Translations under genes and position numbers: made by a program
Source of the DNA: an uncultured Hormoscilla sp.
Lineage (GTDB): Bacteria > Cyanobacteriota > Cyanobacteriia > Cyanobacteriales > Desertifilaceae
Length of the DNA: 64,000 nucleotides
Reading direction: 5' to 3'
Assembly (NCBI GenBank): GCA_963921275.4
Contig: OZ001293.3
Coordinates: forward strand, 2,944,001-3,008,000
Shown: positions 5,101 through 51,855 of the stretch, one piece after another
How the letters are laid out: every line of letters begins with the position of its first letter
Numbering within the stretch: the first letter of the stretch is position 1
The notes under the pieces: model-generated
The model's input: only the letters and a program-made list of their open reading frames with translations
Database searches by the model: none
What the model was told of the DNA's origin: nothing

Positions 5101-6662
5101 CGGACCGGAATGTCGCCGGTGATTTCTCCCCGATCGTTTTTAACTTCAACTTTGCCATTTTCGTATGCTTCTTTGAACTTCGGTTCCGGCGACTCATCGG
5201 AAATCATCTCCTTCAGTTTTGCTGGTTTCCCCCGCGCTACCGGGATTAATTTCGCCATCCGATCGGCGTCTCCGTAGGAAACCCCCAAAACTCTGGCCAC
5301 ATCTTTGAGAACCGCCTTGGAAGTCATCCGGTTAAAAGTAATAATTTGGGCTACCTTTTCTTTACCATACTTATCCGTGACATATTTAATCATGTCATCC
5401 CTTCTTTCAATGCAGAAATCAGAGTCAATATCCGGCATTGATTTTCGTTCGGGATTGAGAAATCGTTCAAATAGCAGTCCGTGATGTACGGGATCTATAT
5501 TAGTAATTCTCAGTGCATAGGCCACCAGAGAACCGGCTGCACTTCCCCGTCCAGGCCCCACTGGAATGTGATTCTTTCTGGCATAATTTATATAATCCCA
5601 AACTACTAAGAAGTAACTGGAAAATTTTTTTTCCTGCATTACTTTCAGCTCAATTCCTAACCGTTCTTTATATTCTGGATAGCGCGTTTCAATTTCCTTG
5701 CGTCCTTTGCAGTTTAGCCGTTCTTCCAGTCCTTCCCATGTTTTTTCCTCAAGAAAACTATCTGGTGTATGGCCTTCCTTCTGATAATTGGGGATGCGCG
5801 GTGCCCCCATTATGTCATATGCTTGCACCTTATTCGCCACTTCTACCGTGTTCGCGATCGCCTTTTCGATCGCCTGATCTGGCAAATGATCTCTAAACAA
5901 CTGCTTCATCTCCTCTGCTGACTTGAGATACTCCGTCCCGCTGTAGCGAAAAGTCCGCTTTTCATCATTAAATAACTTATTCGTGTTAATACAAAGTAGA
6001 GCATCGTGAGCTTCTACATCATAGCAATCAATATAATGGGAATCATTAGTCGCCACTACCTTAATTCCCAGTTCCTGGGCCATATCCCAGATTTCCACAT
6101 TAACTATTCTATCTTCCTGGTAACCGTGGTCTTGAATCTCTAAATAGTAATCCTCTCCAAATATTTCCTTGTACCATTTTGCCACTTCCCAAGCTTCTTT
6201 TGCTCGATCGTTGAGAATTAGCTTTGGCACTTCTCCCGCCCGGCAACCACTGGTTACTATCAGACCTTCATGGTATTCTGCTAGCAATTCTTTTGTGATA
6301 CAAGGACGGGCAAATATCCCGCTGCCTTGCTTTCCCTCTAGATGGGACTTTGTCGTCAGCTTGACTAGATTTTTATAGCCCTGTGTATTTTTCGCCAACA
6401 CCGTTTGGTGATGGTTGCTGTACTTCCCTTTATGATTTTTAATTGTGTTATTTACCACATACATTTCATTGCCGATAATTGGCTTAATGTTTTTGCTCCT
6501 GCAAACCTTAATCAGCTCTATCGCCCCATACATTACCCCGTGGTCCGTCAGGGCGATCGCCTCCATACCCAACTCTTTAGCTCTAGAAACCAATTGTGGC
6601 AGTTGAGAAGCACCATCCAGCAGACTATAATCACTGTGAATATGTAGACCTACAAAATCCAT
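2175..6662 (-). CDS. dnaE: DNA polymerase III alpha subunit, contiguous (no intein), with repeat-rich linker and duplicated OB fold
   Basis: PHP motifs [23 protein letters not shown], catalytic PDIDSDF and KMDFLGL, uninterrupted [11 protein letters not shown]. Confidence 0.96.
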
Positions 6663-44320: not shown

Positions 44321-44452
44321 AGTGGAACGAGTGCTGGGGGAGTGGAACGAGTGCTGGGGGAGTAGAACGAGTGCGGGTTGGATAATGACTGTTGCGGGTT
44401 GAGCAGTGACCTGTGCAGGTTGGATAATGACTGTTGCGGTTGAGCAGTGACC
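44321..44452. repeat. short compound tandem repeat
   Basis: AGTGGAACGAGTGCTGGGGG about x3, then GGTTGGATAATGACTGTTGCGG.TTGAGCAGTGACC x2. Confidence 0.8.
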
Positions 44453-44779
44453 AGAGTTGGGAAAGTAGCATAGCTGGTGCCGTTCCGGAAAAATCGGATT
44501 GCTCGATTTTTCCTCAGTTGCGCAATTTTGATTCCGGATCGGAGGTCGTGCTGATAGAACTCGATATACAGTAACGCATAAGGTAAGAGCAATCTAGTCC
44601 GATTTTGTCCCGCGTTCTGACGCTGAGTTCAAAAACTGGGAATCAAACGCAAATATGAGATGCACCCTCGCACTCTCATCAATGCATCGCGAGGCTGTAG
44701 CGGATGCGCCCTCGATGTTTGGGATACCTCCTGCTGTAGAGAAGAAATGGGAACCAATCATTCATCTGTCATTGCCAAC

Positions 44780-44967
44780 AGATTTGAAAATCATGATTGT
44801 GGACGATGAACCGGTCAACCTCCAGGTACTGGTGAACTATCTGTCGCCCCATAACTATGTTCTGATCGAAGCCACGAATGAAGGCAGATATTCACGAAGG
44901 GATTGAGAGCACGTTAGTAATCTTAGAAAATTATCTGAAAAATACCCCTAATGGTAGGAAAATTCAA
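44780..44967 (+). pseudogene. fused receiver-domain and histidine-kinase fragments
   Basis: KIMIVDDEPVNLQVL abuts ADIHEGIESTLVIL in another frame; truncated at the intron. Confidence 0.7.
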
Positions 44968-45750
44968 GTCAGACCGGGGTCGAGCTGGTACTCGCGTACC
45001 AACCCTCCCTTTCGGAACCTGAAGAGCGACTTTCACCGCACACGGCTACTGGTTAATAGGCTGTTGTCATCAGTAGGATTACCGAGGGTTACCCCGTTTG
45101 TCCCTTGTCCCATGAAATTTTGCCCCTTTGTGGTCAGTCGATGGACCCTTAGCTACCTAACTCCGGAAGGTTCGCGGGGGTTAGACCAGAAAACCACATC
45201 TCCGCTCTTTACTAAGTTTTCCCTTTGTTTTTGGAGCCCTGTATCTTTACCCGGTTAGGATTTTAATCCACCATTAATCCCTAGGATTTCTCCTGGTTTA
45301 TTACATTCAAAGGCTACTTTCTCCCAGAACCTCCTATTATATCCGTCCTACGTCAGCATATCCCAGGCATTACCCCGGGCGTTGGCTTCTTAGGACATCC
45401 CTTCCTCTGTGGCATGCGCTTTACATCTAACTTGTCCAAATGGGGACAGCACACAGGAGATTACCTCGTTCCTTGATATCATTTCACGAGACTTTTAGGT
45501 CCCTTCTTTCCACCGGTAGTCCTATTCGGGTAATTACTAGCTACCTATAACAGCTAGTACGCTGACTACTTTCACAATTTTGTGTCGAGCGTTTTATCAG
45601 CCCTTTTCGCTCGTTCTGTGTAACGACGTTTATACGAAGGTTCGCTTTTTCTAACCATGAGCCTCTTTCCTAGCGGTTTCGTTCTCCGGACTGACCTTAT
45701 CCTACATTTTAGTCCTTGCTTCACACCACGGCGATGTGACTCCGTAGCAC
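44968..45750 (-). mobile_element. ORF-less, degenerate group II intron (boundaries approximate)
   Basis: minus strand: 5' GTGCT, domain V-like AGCCGTGTGCGGTGAAAGTCGC...GGTTC, domain VI-like hairpin GGTTGGTAC-GCGA-GTACCAGCT then CGACCCC. Confidence 0.75.
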
Positions 45751-46152
45751 TAAGGACCCATACTCTCCCATGCTGCCATTGCCACCAATGGCGCTATTAT
45801 TCTGGAAAGTGCTATCGGTCACCGTGACCGTCCCTTTATAGACAAACAGGGCACCGCCCATGCCTGCCGCCCCGCCGCCGCCATCGCCTCCTCGGGCCCG
45901 GCCGTTGCTAAAGGTCAGGCGATCGAAATTGACCACACCGCTTCTGACAAAGAACAGCCGGTGTTGGTCGTTGCCATTAATGGTGTTGTCGCCTCCTGAA
46001 ATCGTGAGCTGGATGTCCTCTTCAATAAGGGGTAGCAACCCGGTCAGGGTAATATCTCCCGTGATGTTAATGCTATCTGCCTCACCGTTATTCTTGGAAT
46101 CGGTAATCGCTTGGGAGAGTCCTCTTTCTGTGTTGACGTTAAATGTAGCCAT
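45751..46152 (-). pseudogene. N-terminal fragment of a glycine-rich beta-helix surface protein, truncated at the intron
   Basis: RLFFVRSG, GGGAAGMGGALFV, F.NNSAIGG motifs. Confidence 0.7.
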
Positions 46153-46418
46153 AATATCTCCTGATGATTGGTTCGGGGGAGCCCTTCTAGGGGTTGTTGG
46201 TCCAATGACCTTGTTCCCTGGCTCCATTGAGCGAAACTTTTAGCTCTACTCCTCAGGGAGTATTTCCTGCTATATACTTTTTTTATGATATTCCGAAGGT
46301 AGTTGTCATCCGTAGATCTCGAAAATTATCAAAATTATTTGCTACTATACCGTCGTCAGCCGCTCCTGGGCCATGTTTTGCCGCTCCTGGGCCATGTTTG
46401 GGGCTATGTTTGGGCCAC

Positions 46419-47636
46419 CTACTGAAGTTCTCCCGTTACCAACCTCCTCAAAATCTCGGTCACTTCCGCAGCCATCCGGGCATCTACCTCTACGGCCTCC
46501 CGGTCGCGTAGCGTGCGCGCAGCGCAATCGAAATCACCCAATGCTTTGGCACAGCGCAGGGTCATGGCCACAGAGATTAGTTTGTCCTGGTAATCAAACT
46601 GAGTAAAGCAGGTGTAAGTTAACTCGGTGCGCTGTTGCCAGCTACTGTAGCCAAAGCCCATTTTCGAGAGTATGACAGGCTTGGAGATCCTATTTTGGAT
46701 GCCTAGCTTCTCAATGGCTACGTCAAGGTAGCGGCCAGGATCTTTACCCAGAGCAAGAATAAATGGTTTCAAGTTGTCCCAAGAACTTCCAGGCAATTGC
46801 GCTGTCGATGGCAGGTGATAATGCCACCCTACCATTGAGATGATTCTCGTCAAGTCATAAGCTGTCACCGAGTTTTCGGTCTTCTCTGTTTCTGGTGCAG
46901 CAGTCAATAGCACCTCATCTGACTTAATCACTTCCGGGTTAGCAATAAACGGATCTTCACCATACATCCCCCGAAATATGGTATGGGGCGTACCAGTAAT
47001 TCCCTTCAGCCATGCTTCTAAATCAGCAAATGTCTGAAAACGCTTAAACATGGCTGCTATAGAATTAGAACTACCTATCTTTGAGTCATAGGTAACAATA
47101 TCCTCGATCAGTTCCGGGATGCCAAAGCTTTTGCCATCACCCCTGACTGCACAAGCATTGATATCTGTCTTGAGGGAACAGATGACATTCAGAATGGGAA
47201 TGATTTTGGTCGTACTCCAAAACTCACCCCGGACGCGGGCTTCTCTTCCCAACCAACGGGCTTTGAATGGCCCTCCTTCCGCACCGCCAATGCAAATACA
47301 GGCTTGCTTGATGTCGGGATGGAGAAATTCTAGTGCTTGTTCGTCAATTGCGGGCAACTCCCCTACTTGGGGATAAGAGGGAACTCCCCCGATCGCCAAG
47401 GAAGGCTGTTCGGTTAAATAGTCTGGGTAATTCTCCACCTGACTGTGATAGGGTGAGTTTTTAATCCCTTTGTCTAGAAAAGCTAGCTTATAGCTGTTGA
47501 AGCCTGCTTCTGAGTCTAGAAACTGATTGTAGACCAGATTCCGATCTTGGGCTATTGTCAGAGAGACGGTCTCGCTGACGAAATTAAAAAAGTTAGTAAT
47601 CAGCTCAGTTATCGTATGAAGTGTCAATTCATTCAT
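46419..47636 (-). CDS. hypothetical protein with beta-lactamase/PBP-like motifs
   Basis: FWSTTK (SxxK), SSN (SxN), SKMG (KTG-like) in canonical order. Confidence 0.6.
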   Translation of the reverse strand: MNELTLHTITELITNFFNFVSETVSLTIAQDRNLVYNQFLDSEAGFNSYKLAFLDKGIKNSPYHSQVENYPDYLTEQPSLAIGGVPSYPQVGELPAIDEQALEFLHPDIKQACICIGGAEGGPFKARWLGREARVRGEFWSTTKIIPILNVICSLKTDINACAVRGDGKSFGIPELIEDIVTYDSKIGSSNSIAAMFKRFQTFADLEAWLKGITGTPHTIFRGMYGEDPFIANPEVIKSDEVLLTAAPETEKTENSVTAYDLTRIISMVGWHYHLPSTAQLPGSSWDNLKPFILALGKDPGRYLDVAIEKLGIQNRISKPVILSKMGFGYSSWQQRTELTYTCFTQFDYQDKLISVAMTLRCAKALGDFDCAARTLRDREAVEVDARMAAEVTEILRRLVTGELQ

Positions 47637-47683: not shown

Positions 47684-49641
47684 TTACAAAAACCACAAAC
47701 GCCGATCGCGCTGCATTCCTGGCGGGAGCAGGTCTTTTAAGGCACGCGACGCTGCCCGATCGGCATAATAGGTGGTAATGGGTAAGCGGACAGTCTGAGT
47801 CGTGCCCACTTGCATCAGACTTAACCAGTATACCTGTTCGGCGAGGGTAAGTAAATCCGTCTCGCCCATCCTTTTTCTAATGCGCAGGGGACGGGGAGCA
47901 CTCTTAGGACTTACTTTAGTCTCGCGCCGACCCGTCGTCAGAATCACCGCTTCATTGCGAGCATATTCCCAAGCATATCCATTTTCCGGGTTCCTGGAAT
48001 TCTTAGGATTCTCTGGGTTATATTCTACAGCTCGACAAGTCCCTGATTTGATTACTTCCACCACATCCACCTGTTTTATTCCGGCTACATGTTTCTGCAA
48101 ATCCGAAATTGCTTCCATCTCTGCATCTCGAACATCCCCGTCGCGATGAATCACTAAATGTTGGAGCTTGCACTTAAAATGGCGATCGTACAATATGACA
48201 AAATTTCCTAACCAATCCATGAGTTGAACGCGATTGAGGGCTTCTCTGTAGACAGGAAACTTAGCTGTTGACCAACCGATCGTCCTACCGGTTCTGTCTA
48301 TCAAGAACGCTGCCGCGACTGTGTCCCTATTTTTCCTGCCAAAATCTAGACCAATAAAAGCTTGGGCTTTTCCTGGCATATCCTTCAGACGCCAACTGAA
48401 ATGACCGAGTTTGGCATTGATTCCCAGAATTACATTCCGACCGATATACTCGTTCCATCCCCTTTTGAGGGTAGATTTGGTAATCATCTGAGATGGCAGT
48501 TGCCGCTTGACAAATTCCTGCTTAATCAGTTCGTAAGGATTGACCTCTCGCGTAAAGTATTTTTCCCCCGGTTTGGGAACGTAAGCAATGACAGCAGCTT
48601 ATGCGCTTTCATTCCAGCCGCTGGATAGGGAAATAAACCTTTTCCAAAATCGAGATTACTCGAACCCTGCTTAAAGTTTTGCAGGTTTCGCGGTTCGCGC
48701 AGGGACTCGGAAAACTTGACGGGAATGTCATTCAGATGAAAGCGATTTTTGGCGTTGAGAAACTTAATGCTGGAGATCGCCTTCTCGACTTTTTCGCCAA
48801 TGGGCAATAGTTGCTGTTTTAAAAACTCATCTTCTACGTCTTCTCGGTCATAAATTTTCCGCAACAGTTGCGGCATGTGGCTGGCCTCAAAATCTATTTT
48901 CCCACTATTTTTATACTTCACCGTGACCGCTGGTGTCGAGGGGTCTAAGGAATTAAGTAATTCATTATCCAGGTTACCTTTTTGCTTGTGGTAGTCAAGG
49001 ACACTCTTATTCCCTAGGGCAGATAGTATAGTGCTAATGTTTTTTTCCTTGTCGATGCGGACAAATTCACAAACCTTGTCATCATACTTGTGCAGCAAGC
49101 GATCGCCAGGATCCAAACTGTCCAGTCCCAGTTGGTCGATCGTCAACTGGGAGTGATACTCGTTAGCGAAGTCAAGCACTAAAACTAAATGCTGATTTTC
49201 TTCTCGGATAAAGTAAAATTTCAGATACATTTGACCTTCCATCCCATCCGTAGTTACCCTCTCTTTGGAATAAATACGTTGGCGCTCGCGATCTACTTTC
49301 GGAGGATGCTTGGCGCTCTGAAAAGCATTATACAGGGCAAAGTTGCAAACCTGGAACAAGTAGCGATTGTATCTGGGTTCAGCTAAGTTAATTGACTCTT
49401 CGTCTATAATACTGTAGCGATCGTCCTGTCTGGCCAACGGAACTAAACTTAAAATGGCACAGTTAGTGATGTCTGCAAGAATGGCAGTTTTGTGTTTCCA
49501 TTTCAGACTCCTAGCTAACGTTCCCAGTTTTCTGGGTAGTTCGTCACTTGCTGCATTTAGTCTGACGCGATAGCGGGTGTAAGGTAGTGAGACGATCGGC
49601 TTTTGACTGACAAAGCTCAATTCTCGTATTAGCATCGGCAT
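47684..49641 (-). pseudogene. ago: long prokaryotic Argonaute, split by an apparent internal deletion/frameshift
   Basis: PIWI motifs NAKLG, FIGLDFG, VIHRDG, EVIKSG, LPITTYYAD; MID Y..IK..PSQMI in the downstream frame; frame switch near 48595. Confidence 0.88.
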
Positions 49642-50019
49642 TGACTCCCTTGACTTGACTTAGCTTACCATAATCTGGGCGATCCATAACTGCTATATTT
49701 TTTTGTCGCCTGTGCTACTGTTTTTGACTGGTGACCGGACCAGAATCCCCAAGGTTCTGTCGCGCTATTAAATTGCAGAGGTCGAAAAGCTGATGTCTTT
49801 GTTATCAATGGCTTTCCCAATTTAAAATTTTGAATTGCTTAGTCACTCTTCAATGCTACTATATAAATTATAGATCCTATAGGGTTTCCTGTCCTTCAGT
49901 GGTCAAAAGTAGTTGTATTAGTGGGGAACAGGGAACGGAGAACGGGGAACAGGAAACGCTCGCAGGGAACGGCGAACGGTTGCCAACGGGCGCAAGACCA
50001 CACCCGTTTAAAACCCCGA

Positions 50020-50720
50020 CGGAGAGGTTTGAAACCCAAACGCGCGTCTTGAATCTTGCCAAGTATTCCCTGAATCTCCTCAATATCATAACCGTCAAGG
50101 AATCTGAACACGGAGGATGCCAGATACTCCCGATCGATAAAATGTGCAACGCCCTCTCCAGCTTTCGCCAGGGAGTTGCCTTCCATTCATCTTTAACGCA
50201 GAGTTGCGCGACTTTAACGTAGAGTCACGCGACTTTAACGCAGAGTCACGCGACTTTAATGCAGAGTTGCGCGACTTTAACGCAGAGTTGCGCGACTTTA
50301 ACGCAGAGTTGCGCGACTTTAACGCAGAGTTGCGCGACTTTAACGCAGAGTTGCGCGACTTTATATATTGGTTATATGACTTTTACGCAGATGCTCCGAA
50401 TATAAGGGTTTTGAAGGTTGCACAATCACGGGATGATAAGGGCTGCTAATGGCTAATACTCAAAGGTTAATCTAGATAGTCATTGGTAGTCATGAATAGA
50501 TTGATTTACTCTTTGCAATTAGCAATTTTCAACCATTGGCTCTTCCAAATGGCTTTATCCACTCGACATACTCGGTTTCCTCGACATTACCATAGGTTTT
50601 CTTGCGGCGCAGGGCAAAAGGCGGGGAAGTCATGACAAGATCGATACTGTTGTCTAGCAACTCTGCTAGGAGTTCAAAGGAATCACCTACGTAGGCTTGA
50701 CCTCTTGTTGTGTGATAAAT
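50020..50720 (-). pseudogene. PvuII-type N4-cytosine methyltransferase, shattered
   Basis: N-part GDS..L..SIDLVMTSPPFALRRKKTYGN (50540-50720); C-part EYLASSVFRFLD (about 50020-50135) resembles the M.PvuII C-terminus as I recall it; middle missing. Confidence 0.75.
50191..50363. repeat. 21-bp tandem array, about 8 copies
   Basis: unit CTTTAACGCAGAGTTGCGCGA. Confidence 0.95.
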
Positions 50721-51855
50721 TTGAATTAAAGGTATCAACAAGAGCCGTCGCTGAAGTTGCCGAAGCGAATTTGCCTAATGCCCATGCTGCTCCTGCCCGT
50801 AGTTCCTCATCACGGTCGCTGTCCTGCAACACCTCAATCAGTATGCTTTTGCTATGTTTCTTTGGTATTTCGGATACCACAATGACTGTTTCCAGTTGTG
50901 TTTGAAGGGGCACGCTCATGACTGGGCTTCGCAGTTTTCTCTCTATGAACTTCCAACCATTCGGGTCGTCGTATGCAGCCAGGGCCGCCGCCGCCTCCAG
51001 TTGAACGTAGATATCCTCATCGGGATCGTTCATCCGGGATGCGAGTGCAGACTTAGCATTGCTATAACCGCGATAACGCAGAGCCTTGGCAGCCGCATAT
51101 CTTTCGCTGAGATTAACACTAGCGAGTTTGTCTGTAAAATATGTTTCATCAATTGGTGGGGGACATTTGAGGTCTGTATAGACAGGTACAACTGACGCAA
51201 CAATTTGATTTGCTTCCACTAGATCTCCTACTTTAACCTGCGGTAACAAGGTTATCTTTCCTCCACTCCGGCTTAACTGGATAGTTTGCCGACGCCCATT
51301 CTGGATCGGAGTAAGACTGACCTTATTAGGTTCCACAGCAAAAACTTGTGACCTCTGTTTGGCAGCGGCACATACCCACACTACCCTGATTTCATAGCCT
51401 TCCTCGACCCCTTTTGGCTGAGTGATAGACACTTGTTCGGCGCTAAAGGCATTACGCAGATCGCTGACGCTAACAAAATGAATAGGAGAAATTTGCTTCA
51501 GGTCAACAGGAGAACCATCTTCTTGCTCAAACATAATGATTGAAACCAGGTCATCATCCCGCATTCCAGCATCCCATGATCTCTTGGGATCCTTCAGGGA
51601 ATGAGACATTGATATTTCGAGTTTTGTCTTGCCGCGAGATTCAAACCTAAGCCCCGTGTTTAAGCAGAGGATGTCAGGCATCCGTACACGCTTGATCTTG
51701 ATTTTCTTCCAAATCTTAAAGCCAGTAGACCCGCGATCGAGTTCGATCGGGTTAAAGTCCATGCTTCTCAGATAGGCAATAGTCGCATTTGTCCCGGCTG
51801 CACCAACCGCAAGTTTTCTCAAGAAACTATCGTCGCTCTTAAAATTATTTGCCAT
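50683..51855 (-). CDS. putative nuclease with HEAT repeats, C-terminally truncated
   Basis: PDILC...FESRGK; HEAT-like ERYAAAKAL, VQLEAAAALA, LRAGAAWALG; directly upstream of the MTase. Confidence 0.65.
   Translation of the reverse strand: MANNFKSDDSFLRKLAVGAAGTNATIAYLRSMDFNPIELDRGSTGFKIWKKIKIKRVRMPDILCLNTGLRFESRGKTKLEISMSHSLKDPKRSWDAGMRDDDLVSIIMFEQEDGSPVDLKQISPIHFVSVSDLRNAFSAEQVSITQPKGVEEGYEIRVVWVCAAAKQRSQVFAVEPNKVSLTPIQNGRRQTIQLSRSGGKITLLPQVKVGDLVEANQIVASVVPVYTDLKCPPPIDETYFTDKLASVNLSERYAAAKALRYRGYSNAKSALASRMNDPDEDIYVQLEAAAALAAYDDPNGWKFIERKLRSPVMSVPLQTQLETVIVVSEIPKKHSKSILIEVLQDSDRDEELRAGAAWALGKFASATSATALVDTFNSNLSHNKRSSLRR

Follow-up and report, generated by a model that had tools for sequence, protein, structure and literature searches.

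Background

The closest described systems to the gene analyzed here are CpAgo (PDB 9jh7/9jh8) and CbAgo (PDB 6qzk), stand-alone long-A prokaryotic Argonautes (pAgos) that are DNA-guided DNA nucleases and that gave its best sequence matches (E 9e-34 and 3.8e-29). The pAgo of the pAgo-ACE1 system (CtAgo, PDB 9iad; PMC12094033) is also a cyanobacterial long-A protein with a DEDD tetrad, and matches at E 7e-18. AfAgo-N/AfAgo (long-B) and the short pAgo-APAZ heterodimers resemble the locus described below in that one frame encodes the N-terminal lobe and an adjacent one the PIWI lobe. According to PMC10954474 they are split before MID, which stays whole, their PIWI is inactive, their PAZ is reduced or missing, and they are found repeatedly in different genomes. 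Sporadic domain loss across the long-pAgo tree was reported by Ryazansky et al. 2018 (PMC6299218), whose ‘truncated’ long pAgos include one without MID.

Hormoscilla have been described as sponge symbionts (PMC7313196, PMC6520454). A literature search returned no publication on Argonaute in sponge cyanobacterial symbionts and none on Hormoscilla pseudogenes (the nearest concerns Leptothoe), and the main text of PMC6520454 makes no mention of pseudogene, transposase, genome reduction, CRISPR, Argonaute or restriction. Here, we analyzed a pAgo locus in a 64,000-nucleotide stretch of an uncultured Hormoscilla sp. genome (GCA_963921275.4, contig OZ001293.3, positions 2,944,001 to 3,008,000; hereafter the window), which an initial annotation of the sequence had interpreted as most likely a recent pseudogene of an active cyanobacterial pAgo.

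Methods

The window's own genome is referred to as G000. An intact ortholog of 710 aa (P0002) was modelled with AlphaFold on a 50-row alignment (pLDDT 91.7, pTM 0.89). Twenty-three sequencing runs were listed, four of which contained all sampled words; the runs compared were three of these four, X1, X3 and X4, together with the relative X5, with X2 and X6-X23 outside the comparison. For the forward decay test, a 201-kb sample of the relative G001, whose pAgo is intact (108 ORFs), was matched against G000 at a threshold of 75% identity, which left out 46 of the 108 ORFs (32 with a best match < 75% identity, 14 without a match); the reverse test, with G000 ORFs searched in G001, left out 11 of 73 ORFs as locus-edge. 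A second pAgo of G000 was typed by motifs read by eye and by tblastn to L009.

Results and discussion

The pAgo gene lies on the minus strand and is spread over two overlapping frames in the ORF list, 49641-48526 and 48598-47684, in agreement with the frame switch seen in the initial annotation. The 5′ part (48526..49641, with a start at 49641 or 49635) is a 371-aa ORF that covers N-L1-PAZ-L2, with 350 residues in register and a tail of 21 out-of-frame residues followed by TGA (48528-48526); in the protein alignment its residues 3-350 correspond to P0002 1-342 at 83% identity. The PAZ domain match within it (PF18309, PAZ_3; 48910..49092, minus strand, aa 184-244; Pfam E 3.3e-5) is weak, scoring 24.8 bits under a curated cut-off of 27. 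The 3′ part (47684..48598, minus strand, 304 codons stop to stop) comprises the second half of MID and the whole PIWI domain (PF02171, Pfam E 1.1e-19), and its residues 3-304 correspond to P0002 409-710 at 92%; its first ATG, at 48487 on the same strand, would give 267 aa. PADLOC pAgo models matched both frames (best E 3.8e-59).

The PIWI aspartates that had been noticed in GLD, RDG and YAD were located at 48346, 48142 and 47761; the position of the glutamate finger, left unplaced in the first reading, is 48244 (minus strand, span 47759..48346). This DEDD tetrad aligns residue for residue with those of CpAgo and CbAgo, in the latter with D541, E577, D611 and D727, in order (numbering from PMC6582352), and is present in 49-50 of the 50 aligned rows of the intact clade. 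The MID 5′-phosphate motif, YKQTNK as defined in PMC6299218, consists of Y 48535, K 48523, Q 48490, T 48481, N 48436 and K 48412 (minus strand, span 48410..48535); its Y, K, Q, N and K occur in all 50 rows of alignment A1 and its T in 28 of them. Upstream, the best promoter-like site (AGGACA-17-TATAAT, 10/12; 49867..49895, minus strand) is a consensus match only, as the promoter scan found 8 sites vs 4.8 ± 2.6 in shuffled sequences, and promoter and terminator counts were at chance level. The same upstream region holds dispersed genomic repeats (49757-49968), short elements that attract many other high-depth contigs in all four runs compared, and a tandem repeat (50191-50363) with a 21-bp unit, 8.2 copies and 94% matches, one frame of which is a heptad repeat; lesser 20-21-bp arrays lie at 44321-44452 and 46359-46399.

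DNA alignment against G001 and another relative, G004, revealed one lesion in the gene, at 48593/48594, where 199 bp (66 codons + 1 nt, P0002 L342-F408) are gone. The junction (48592..48593, minus strand) carries a 2-nt TG microhomology, and the frame switch reads AAGCTGC-TG-TCATT, at the very position given before, the TG (48593-48592) being assignable to either flank. Since the lost length amounts to 66 codons and one base, the first ORF continues for 21 residues out of frame and then stops. Against a third relative, G003, the gap is 198 nt, G003 having its own 1-nt loss there. The in-register residues add up to 348 + 302 = 650 aa, the length already judged short for a long pAgo; the intact same-genus orthologs are 710-723 aa long and 83-92% identical to the window pAgo (the closest database proteins with a name being Hormoscilla), and lengths among the 55 best longer homologs range from 620 to 834 aa (median 727). 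The missing block measures 64-67 residues in 50 of 50 full-length rows of alignment A1; by these lengths together with the block, a naturally short family was ruled out. Relocation within G000 was ruled out as well, as a search of the assembly for the lost 199 bp gave a best blastn E of 0.086 and no tblastn match.

In the AlphaFold model of P0002, the first four MID elements are a strand (347-355), a helix (356-375), a strand (379-387) and a helix (392-401), and the next four are a strand (408-413), a helix (427-437), a strand (442-446) and a helix (456-469), in line with the four-stranded parallel sheet of beta-alpha repeats described for the MID fold (PMC2897117). Mapped on this model, the deletion is predicted to take strand 1, helix 1, strand 2 and helix 2, the first two of the four strand-helix units, and the second frame begins at MID strand 3 (P0002 409). 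The out-of-frame deletion previously placed in L2/MID was thus found, but hardly in L2, whose end contributes only ~5 residues to a loss that is almost wholly the first half of MID. The MID of the window copy is incomplete, with the motif residues kept and two of four strands and two helices gone, and the reading frame is interrupted by the 199-bp deletion and the TGA at 48528-48526. By its domains and tetrad, the window copy can be counted as a long-A pAgo by descent, one that has neither the continuous frame nor the complete MID of a functional member.

An assembly or sequencing artefact, with the gene in reality intact, has next to no probability in our judgment. X1, X3 and X4 each contain a single contig across 47300-49928 with 0 differing letters and 0 gaps (depths 16, 48 and 85), so that an assembly error can be set aside; the three come from three sample codes, and their contigs list no joint or second allele at the junction. 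Moreover, a 199-bp loss is unlike a homopolymer-type error, and the lost piece is absent elsewhere in the assembly. What can be said for an artefact is that the comparison rests on contigs rather than raw reads, and that all three runs carry the same study code, so that the source of the window itself may be among them. These contigs back the consensus, beside which a rare intact allele may persist. X5, a sponge metagenome, yielded a related allele in which the 199 bp are present, and the only RNA run listed contained 0.06 of the sampled words.

Two frames that are otherwise open and keep the tetrad could also be taken for a working two-chain long-A pAgo comparable to AfAgo-N/AfAgo, in which an N-PAZ-L2 chain would be joined by a MID-remnant-PIWI chain that is re-initiated (at CTG, ATT or ATG) or frameshifted. 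We hold this to be very improbable, and we give equally little credence to a natural split, catalytically competent long-A pAgo whose half-MID PIWI chain would be a guide-poor or guide-independent DNA nuclease. Within the long-B and short clades pAgos have become split on many occasions, but in the known cases one subunit retains MID and PIWI entire (PMC10954474), and here half of the MID sheet is missing whatever the reading. The in-frame CTG at 48529 overlaps the upstream TGA (CTGA) in a manner suggestive of re-initiation, yet this out-of-frame TGA is ancestral, G001 having CTG ATA there, so the overlap is accidental. A restart at CTG would lose the motif Tyr, and one at ATG would lose Y, K and Q; before the ATG at 48487 the only possible starts are ATT (48589, 48526) and CTG (48529, 48499), with no in-frame GTG or TTG, which agrees with the earlier opinion that a two-chain form is the less likely one. 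A G5A5 run also sits in the frame overlap. Programmed frameshifting or slippage at this run (48571-48562 region) was rejected: judged by sequence only, the frame-restored product would still be without three MID strands, and relatives carry GGGGGAAGAA or GGGGGAGGAA at that run.

Some related sequences seem at first to repeat the arrangement. The second frame of G003 starts at nearly the same place, but it owes this start to a frameshift and a stop and is minus one catalytic Asp. The first residue of P0128, P0129 and P0146 is a Met that aligns with P0002 412, these being protein records whose upstream DNA was outside the comparison; their cluster-mate P0144 equals the sequence of the second frame of locus L031, which has a stop and a frameshift farther upstream. 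Against a split shared by descent, the window junction was found in 0 of 23 clade loci in the genome contigs and in 0 of 19 metagenome loci, and the N-part search of 204-650-aa proteins gave five matches with scattered ends (P0002 342, which is the window copy itself, 390, 710, 274 and 436). Searches of shorter proteins returned 17 C-type and 5 N-type matches in all, and their scattered ends ruled out a conserved split. The window copy is not an AfAgo-type split pAgo: its deletion lies inside MID, occurs in one strain, leaves an active-type PIWI and offers no good second start. Nor does it equal the ‘truncated’ pAgos of Ryazansky et al. (PMC6299218), which are annotated proteins without PAZ, whereas the window copy keeps PAZ, loses half of MID and is frameshifted. 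If the two-chain reading were true after all, the window copy would be without precedent as a split slicing pAgo, and the need for a whole MID would come into question.

The evidence points instead to a recent pseudogene of a stand-alone long-A pAgo, broken by an out-of-frame deletion, which we consider highly likely. It is supported by the 199-bp deletion, the contigs of three runs, the kept tetrad and the orthologs of 710-723 aa; neither a continuous frame nor homologs naturally of this length, the two outcomes named beforehand as contrary to it, came to light. The gene is intact at the same locus in G001, flanked by the same downstream gene. The G003 copy lacks 1 nt, contains a TAA and has E in place of the last catalytic D, the G002 copy has two large deletions, and the G004 copy an insertion of ~880 bp, with the remainder of the gene on another contig; as close relatives broke the same gene in other ways, ordinary gene decay is indicated. 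Among the 23 clade loci in the genome contigs, 15 were full-length and open, six were broken elsewhere and two were partial, while the 19 metagenome loci comprised eight full-length and open copies, five that represent one C-terminal remnant with a stop, and others that were partial or distant. P0002 was matched at E 1e-60 or better in 17 of 401 genomes of the order, and P0002, P0003, P0004 and P0139 are intact same-genus-like proteins.

In a quick tree of 59 MID-PIWI rows, the window pAgo grouped with Hormoscilla (100) and Aerosakkonema (99), without long-B or short rows. CpAgo, KmAgo and CbAgo headed the fold search with the intact ortholog, in which the best structure matches were all long-A and CpAgo/CbAgo took ranks 1, 3 and 4 (TMq 0.73-0.77); the ortholog matches these three across ~790 alignment columns. 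The window pAgo differs from CpAgo and CbAgo in belonging to a separate cyanobacterial clade, with ~20% identity over the whole structure, and, unlike them, it is out of frame and minus 66 MID residues. In the quick tree it also stood apart from the cyanobacterial pAgos of 27-31% identity, which form another branch (SH-aLRT 100), and, in contrast to pAgo-ACE1, its own clade has no conserved partner gene. Across 22 clade loci, no shared neighbor gene was found beyond close kin, which argues for a stand-alone pAgo, and no Cas4-family ACE1 gene was found among the window neighbors.

Other irregularities were seen in the clade. L028 and L030 have a TAA at the same aligned codon (5367-5369 in both, ~aa 123), where L031 has GAG; the two are only 68% identical, and their other 598-600 codons are open. 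Because the quick tree pairs L028 with the intact L108 and L030 with L031, the stops look parallel rather than inherited, and they may reflect readthrough or an N-domain split. L028 is titled Tatlockia (Legionellaceae), yet its pAgo nests among cyanobacterial sequences, so a mis-binned contig or a transfer is likely. Within the genus, the pAgo alleles (window vs L081, L083 and L085) look mosaic, with conflicting patterns in the indels and divergent tracts that they have in common, and the pairwise dS between the window and G003 is 0.135 in pAgo vs 0.258 in the neighboring gene; homologous recombination is suggested by both. As to habitat, the intact L016 comes from a record titled sediment bin, and L024, L071, P0141/P0148 and P0001, whose strain names we take to be sponge-derived, are fragmentary or split and overlap with other handles instead of adding cases. 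A pattern of pAgo breakage in symbionts vs free-living relatives is a lead only, the records of the intact P0003, P0004 and P0139 giving no habitat.

Regarding age, the window pAgo has no nonsense codon over 1945 nt and has kept all ten key residues. The lack of nonsense codons bounds neutral divergence at ~0.033 substitutions per site, in agreement with private synonymous changes of 0.02 per site; a single lesion and no nonsense codon fit a recent event, without proving loss of function. The private changes of the gene (21.5 non-synonymous, 8.5 synonymous) give a pN/pS of 0.71, vs 0.27, 0.85 and 0.44 in the pAgos of G001 (intact), G003 and G004, respectively, and 0.23 in the window's neighboring gene. 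This contrast is modest (Fisher p 0.03-0.15 vs G001 depending on rounding, and 0.012-0.024 vs the neighboring gene), and the comparison is unrooted, with alleles that look mosaic.

The forward decay test showed that, out of 62 G001 ORFs, 44 were intact in G000, 13 broken (counting the repetitive and doubtful L102) and 5 partial. Of the 62 non-edge ORFs in the reverse test, 49 were intact, 6 broken and 7 partial, several of these cases probably being spurious opposite-strand ORFs; as this control also shows broken genes, decay is not one-sided. Outside the window, G000 has a second pAgo (C1:3059184-3061404) that is frameshifted, as is the Cas4-like gene upstream of it (both within C1:3059184-3062209). 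By its sequence motifs this pAgo looks like an ACE1 type and resembles the systems of PMC12094033; its row was a long-branch outlier in the quick tree, and different lesions disrupt the orthologous gene in G002, G003 and G004. A frame change and a reverse-transcriptase-like ORF were seen at a further G000 locus.

The loss could also have been driven by selection and not by drift, if slicing pAgos are costly or block the uptake of useful DNA in these lineages, each of which would then have inactivated them. This proposal concerns the cause and is compatible with a pseudogene; we rate it as unlikely, but well above the alternatives discussed so far. Accessory genes decay faster than average, and this weighs against it, as does the existence of the intact P0002, P0003, P0004 and P0139. 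Breakage of both pAgo genes in four of five same-genus genomes by different lesions speaks in its favor, but kin are not independent, and differing lesions can follow one ancestral relaxation; of the six broken loci among the 23 of the clade, moreover, four are outside the window's genus. This breakage is also more frequent than the background in G000, where 13-18 of 62 genes were affected; the background rate comes from G000 and G001 only. The finding that SeAgo lowers natural transformation (PMC10653904) likewise speaks in its favor.

The surroundings of the gene were considered as well. A 405-aa gene (46419..47636, minus strand), 47 bp downstream of pAgo, is intact and was taken as context only; Pfam, NCBIfam and PADLOC gave no match to it, and the PDB none of use. 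It is syntenic within the genus only and under purifying selection in five of five same-genus genomes; the motifs STTK, SNS and SKMG were noted by eye, and presumably recall serine beta-lactamase-like folds. Upstream, at 50529-51855 (minus strand), a gene of 390 aa carries HEAT repeats in its C-terminal part, while its N-terminal part appears restriction endonuclease-like by eye; it is followed by what is left of a type II methyltransferase, a stub of 70 aa (PADLOC E 3.1e-21). The two are probably a decayed restriction-modification pair, which is not common to the relatives' loci. Short response regulator/histidine kinase-like and adhesin-like fragments occupy 44655-45258 and 45721-46227, and the insertion in the G004 pAgo matches 44976-45758; these are more decayed genes and a mobile-element remnant.

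Conclusions

The history of the gene may be outlined as follows. The intact ancestor would have had ~716 aa, with the architecture N-L1-PAZ-L2-MID-PIWI, DEDD and YKQTNK, and by analogy with its relatives was probably a DNA-guided slicer. Homology and motifs suggest that it was most likely CbAgo/CpAgo-like, loading 5′-phosphorylated short DNA guides and cutting complementary plasmid or phage DNA. Selection had probably relaxed before the deletion, in a genome that was shedding many genes. The loss of the 199 bp, which removed half of MID and shifted the frame, may then have come about by end joining or slippage at the 2-nt microhomology. Translation would now yield at most the 371-aa N-PAZ-L2 fragment with its junk tail; the PIWI half is not preceded by a proper start, and any product of it would be without the guide-anchoring pocket, so the present products are presumably inert.

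As it stands, the window copy is one more decayed defense gene and matters little. No characterized member of its clade was found, the sequences of characterized cyanobacterial pAgos such as LrAgo lying outside the comparison. Together with ~50 more, the intact orthologs P0002, P0003, P0004 and P0139 make up a cyanobacterial long-A clade of stand-alone pAgos, distinct from the ACE1-associated cyanobacterial pAgos, and they are candidate mesophilic programmable nucleases. For the genus itself, two pAgos broken differently in four of five genomes amount to a small natural experiment on the loss of nucleic-acid defense.
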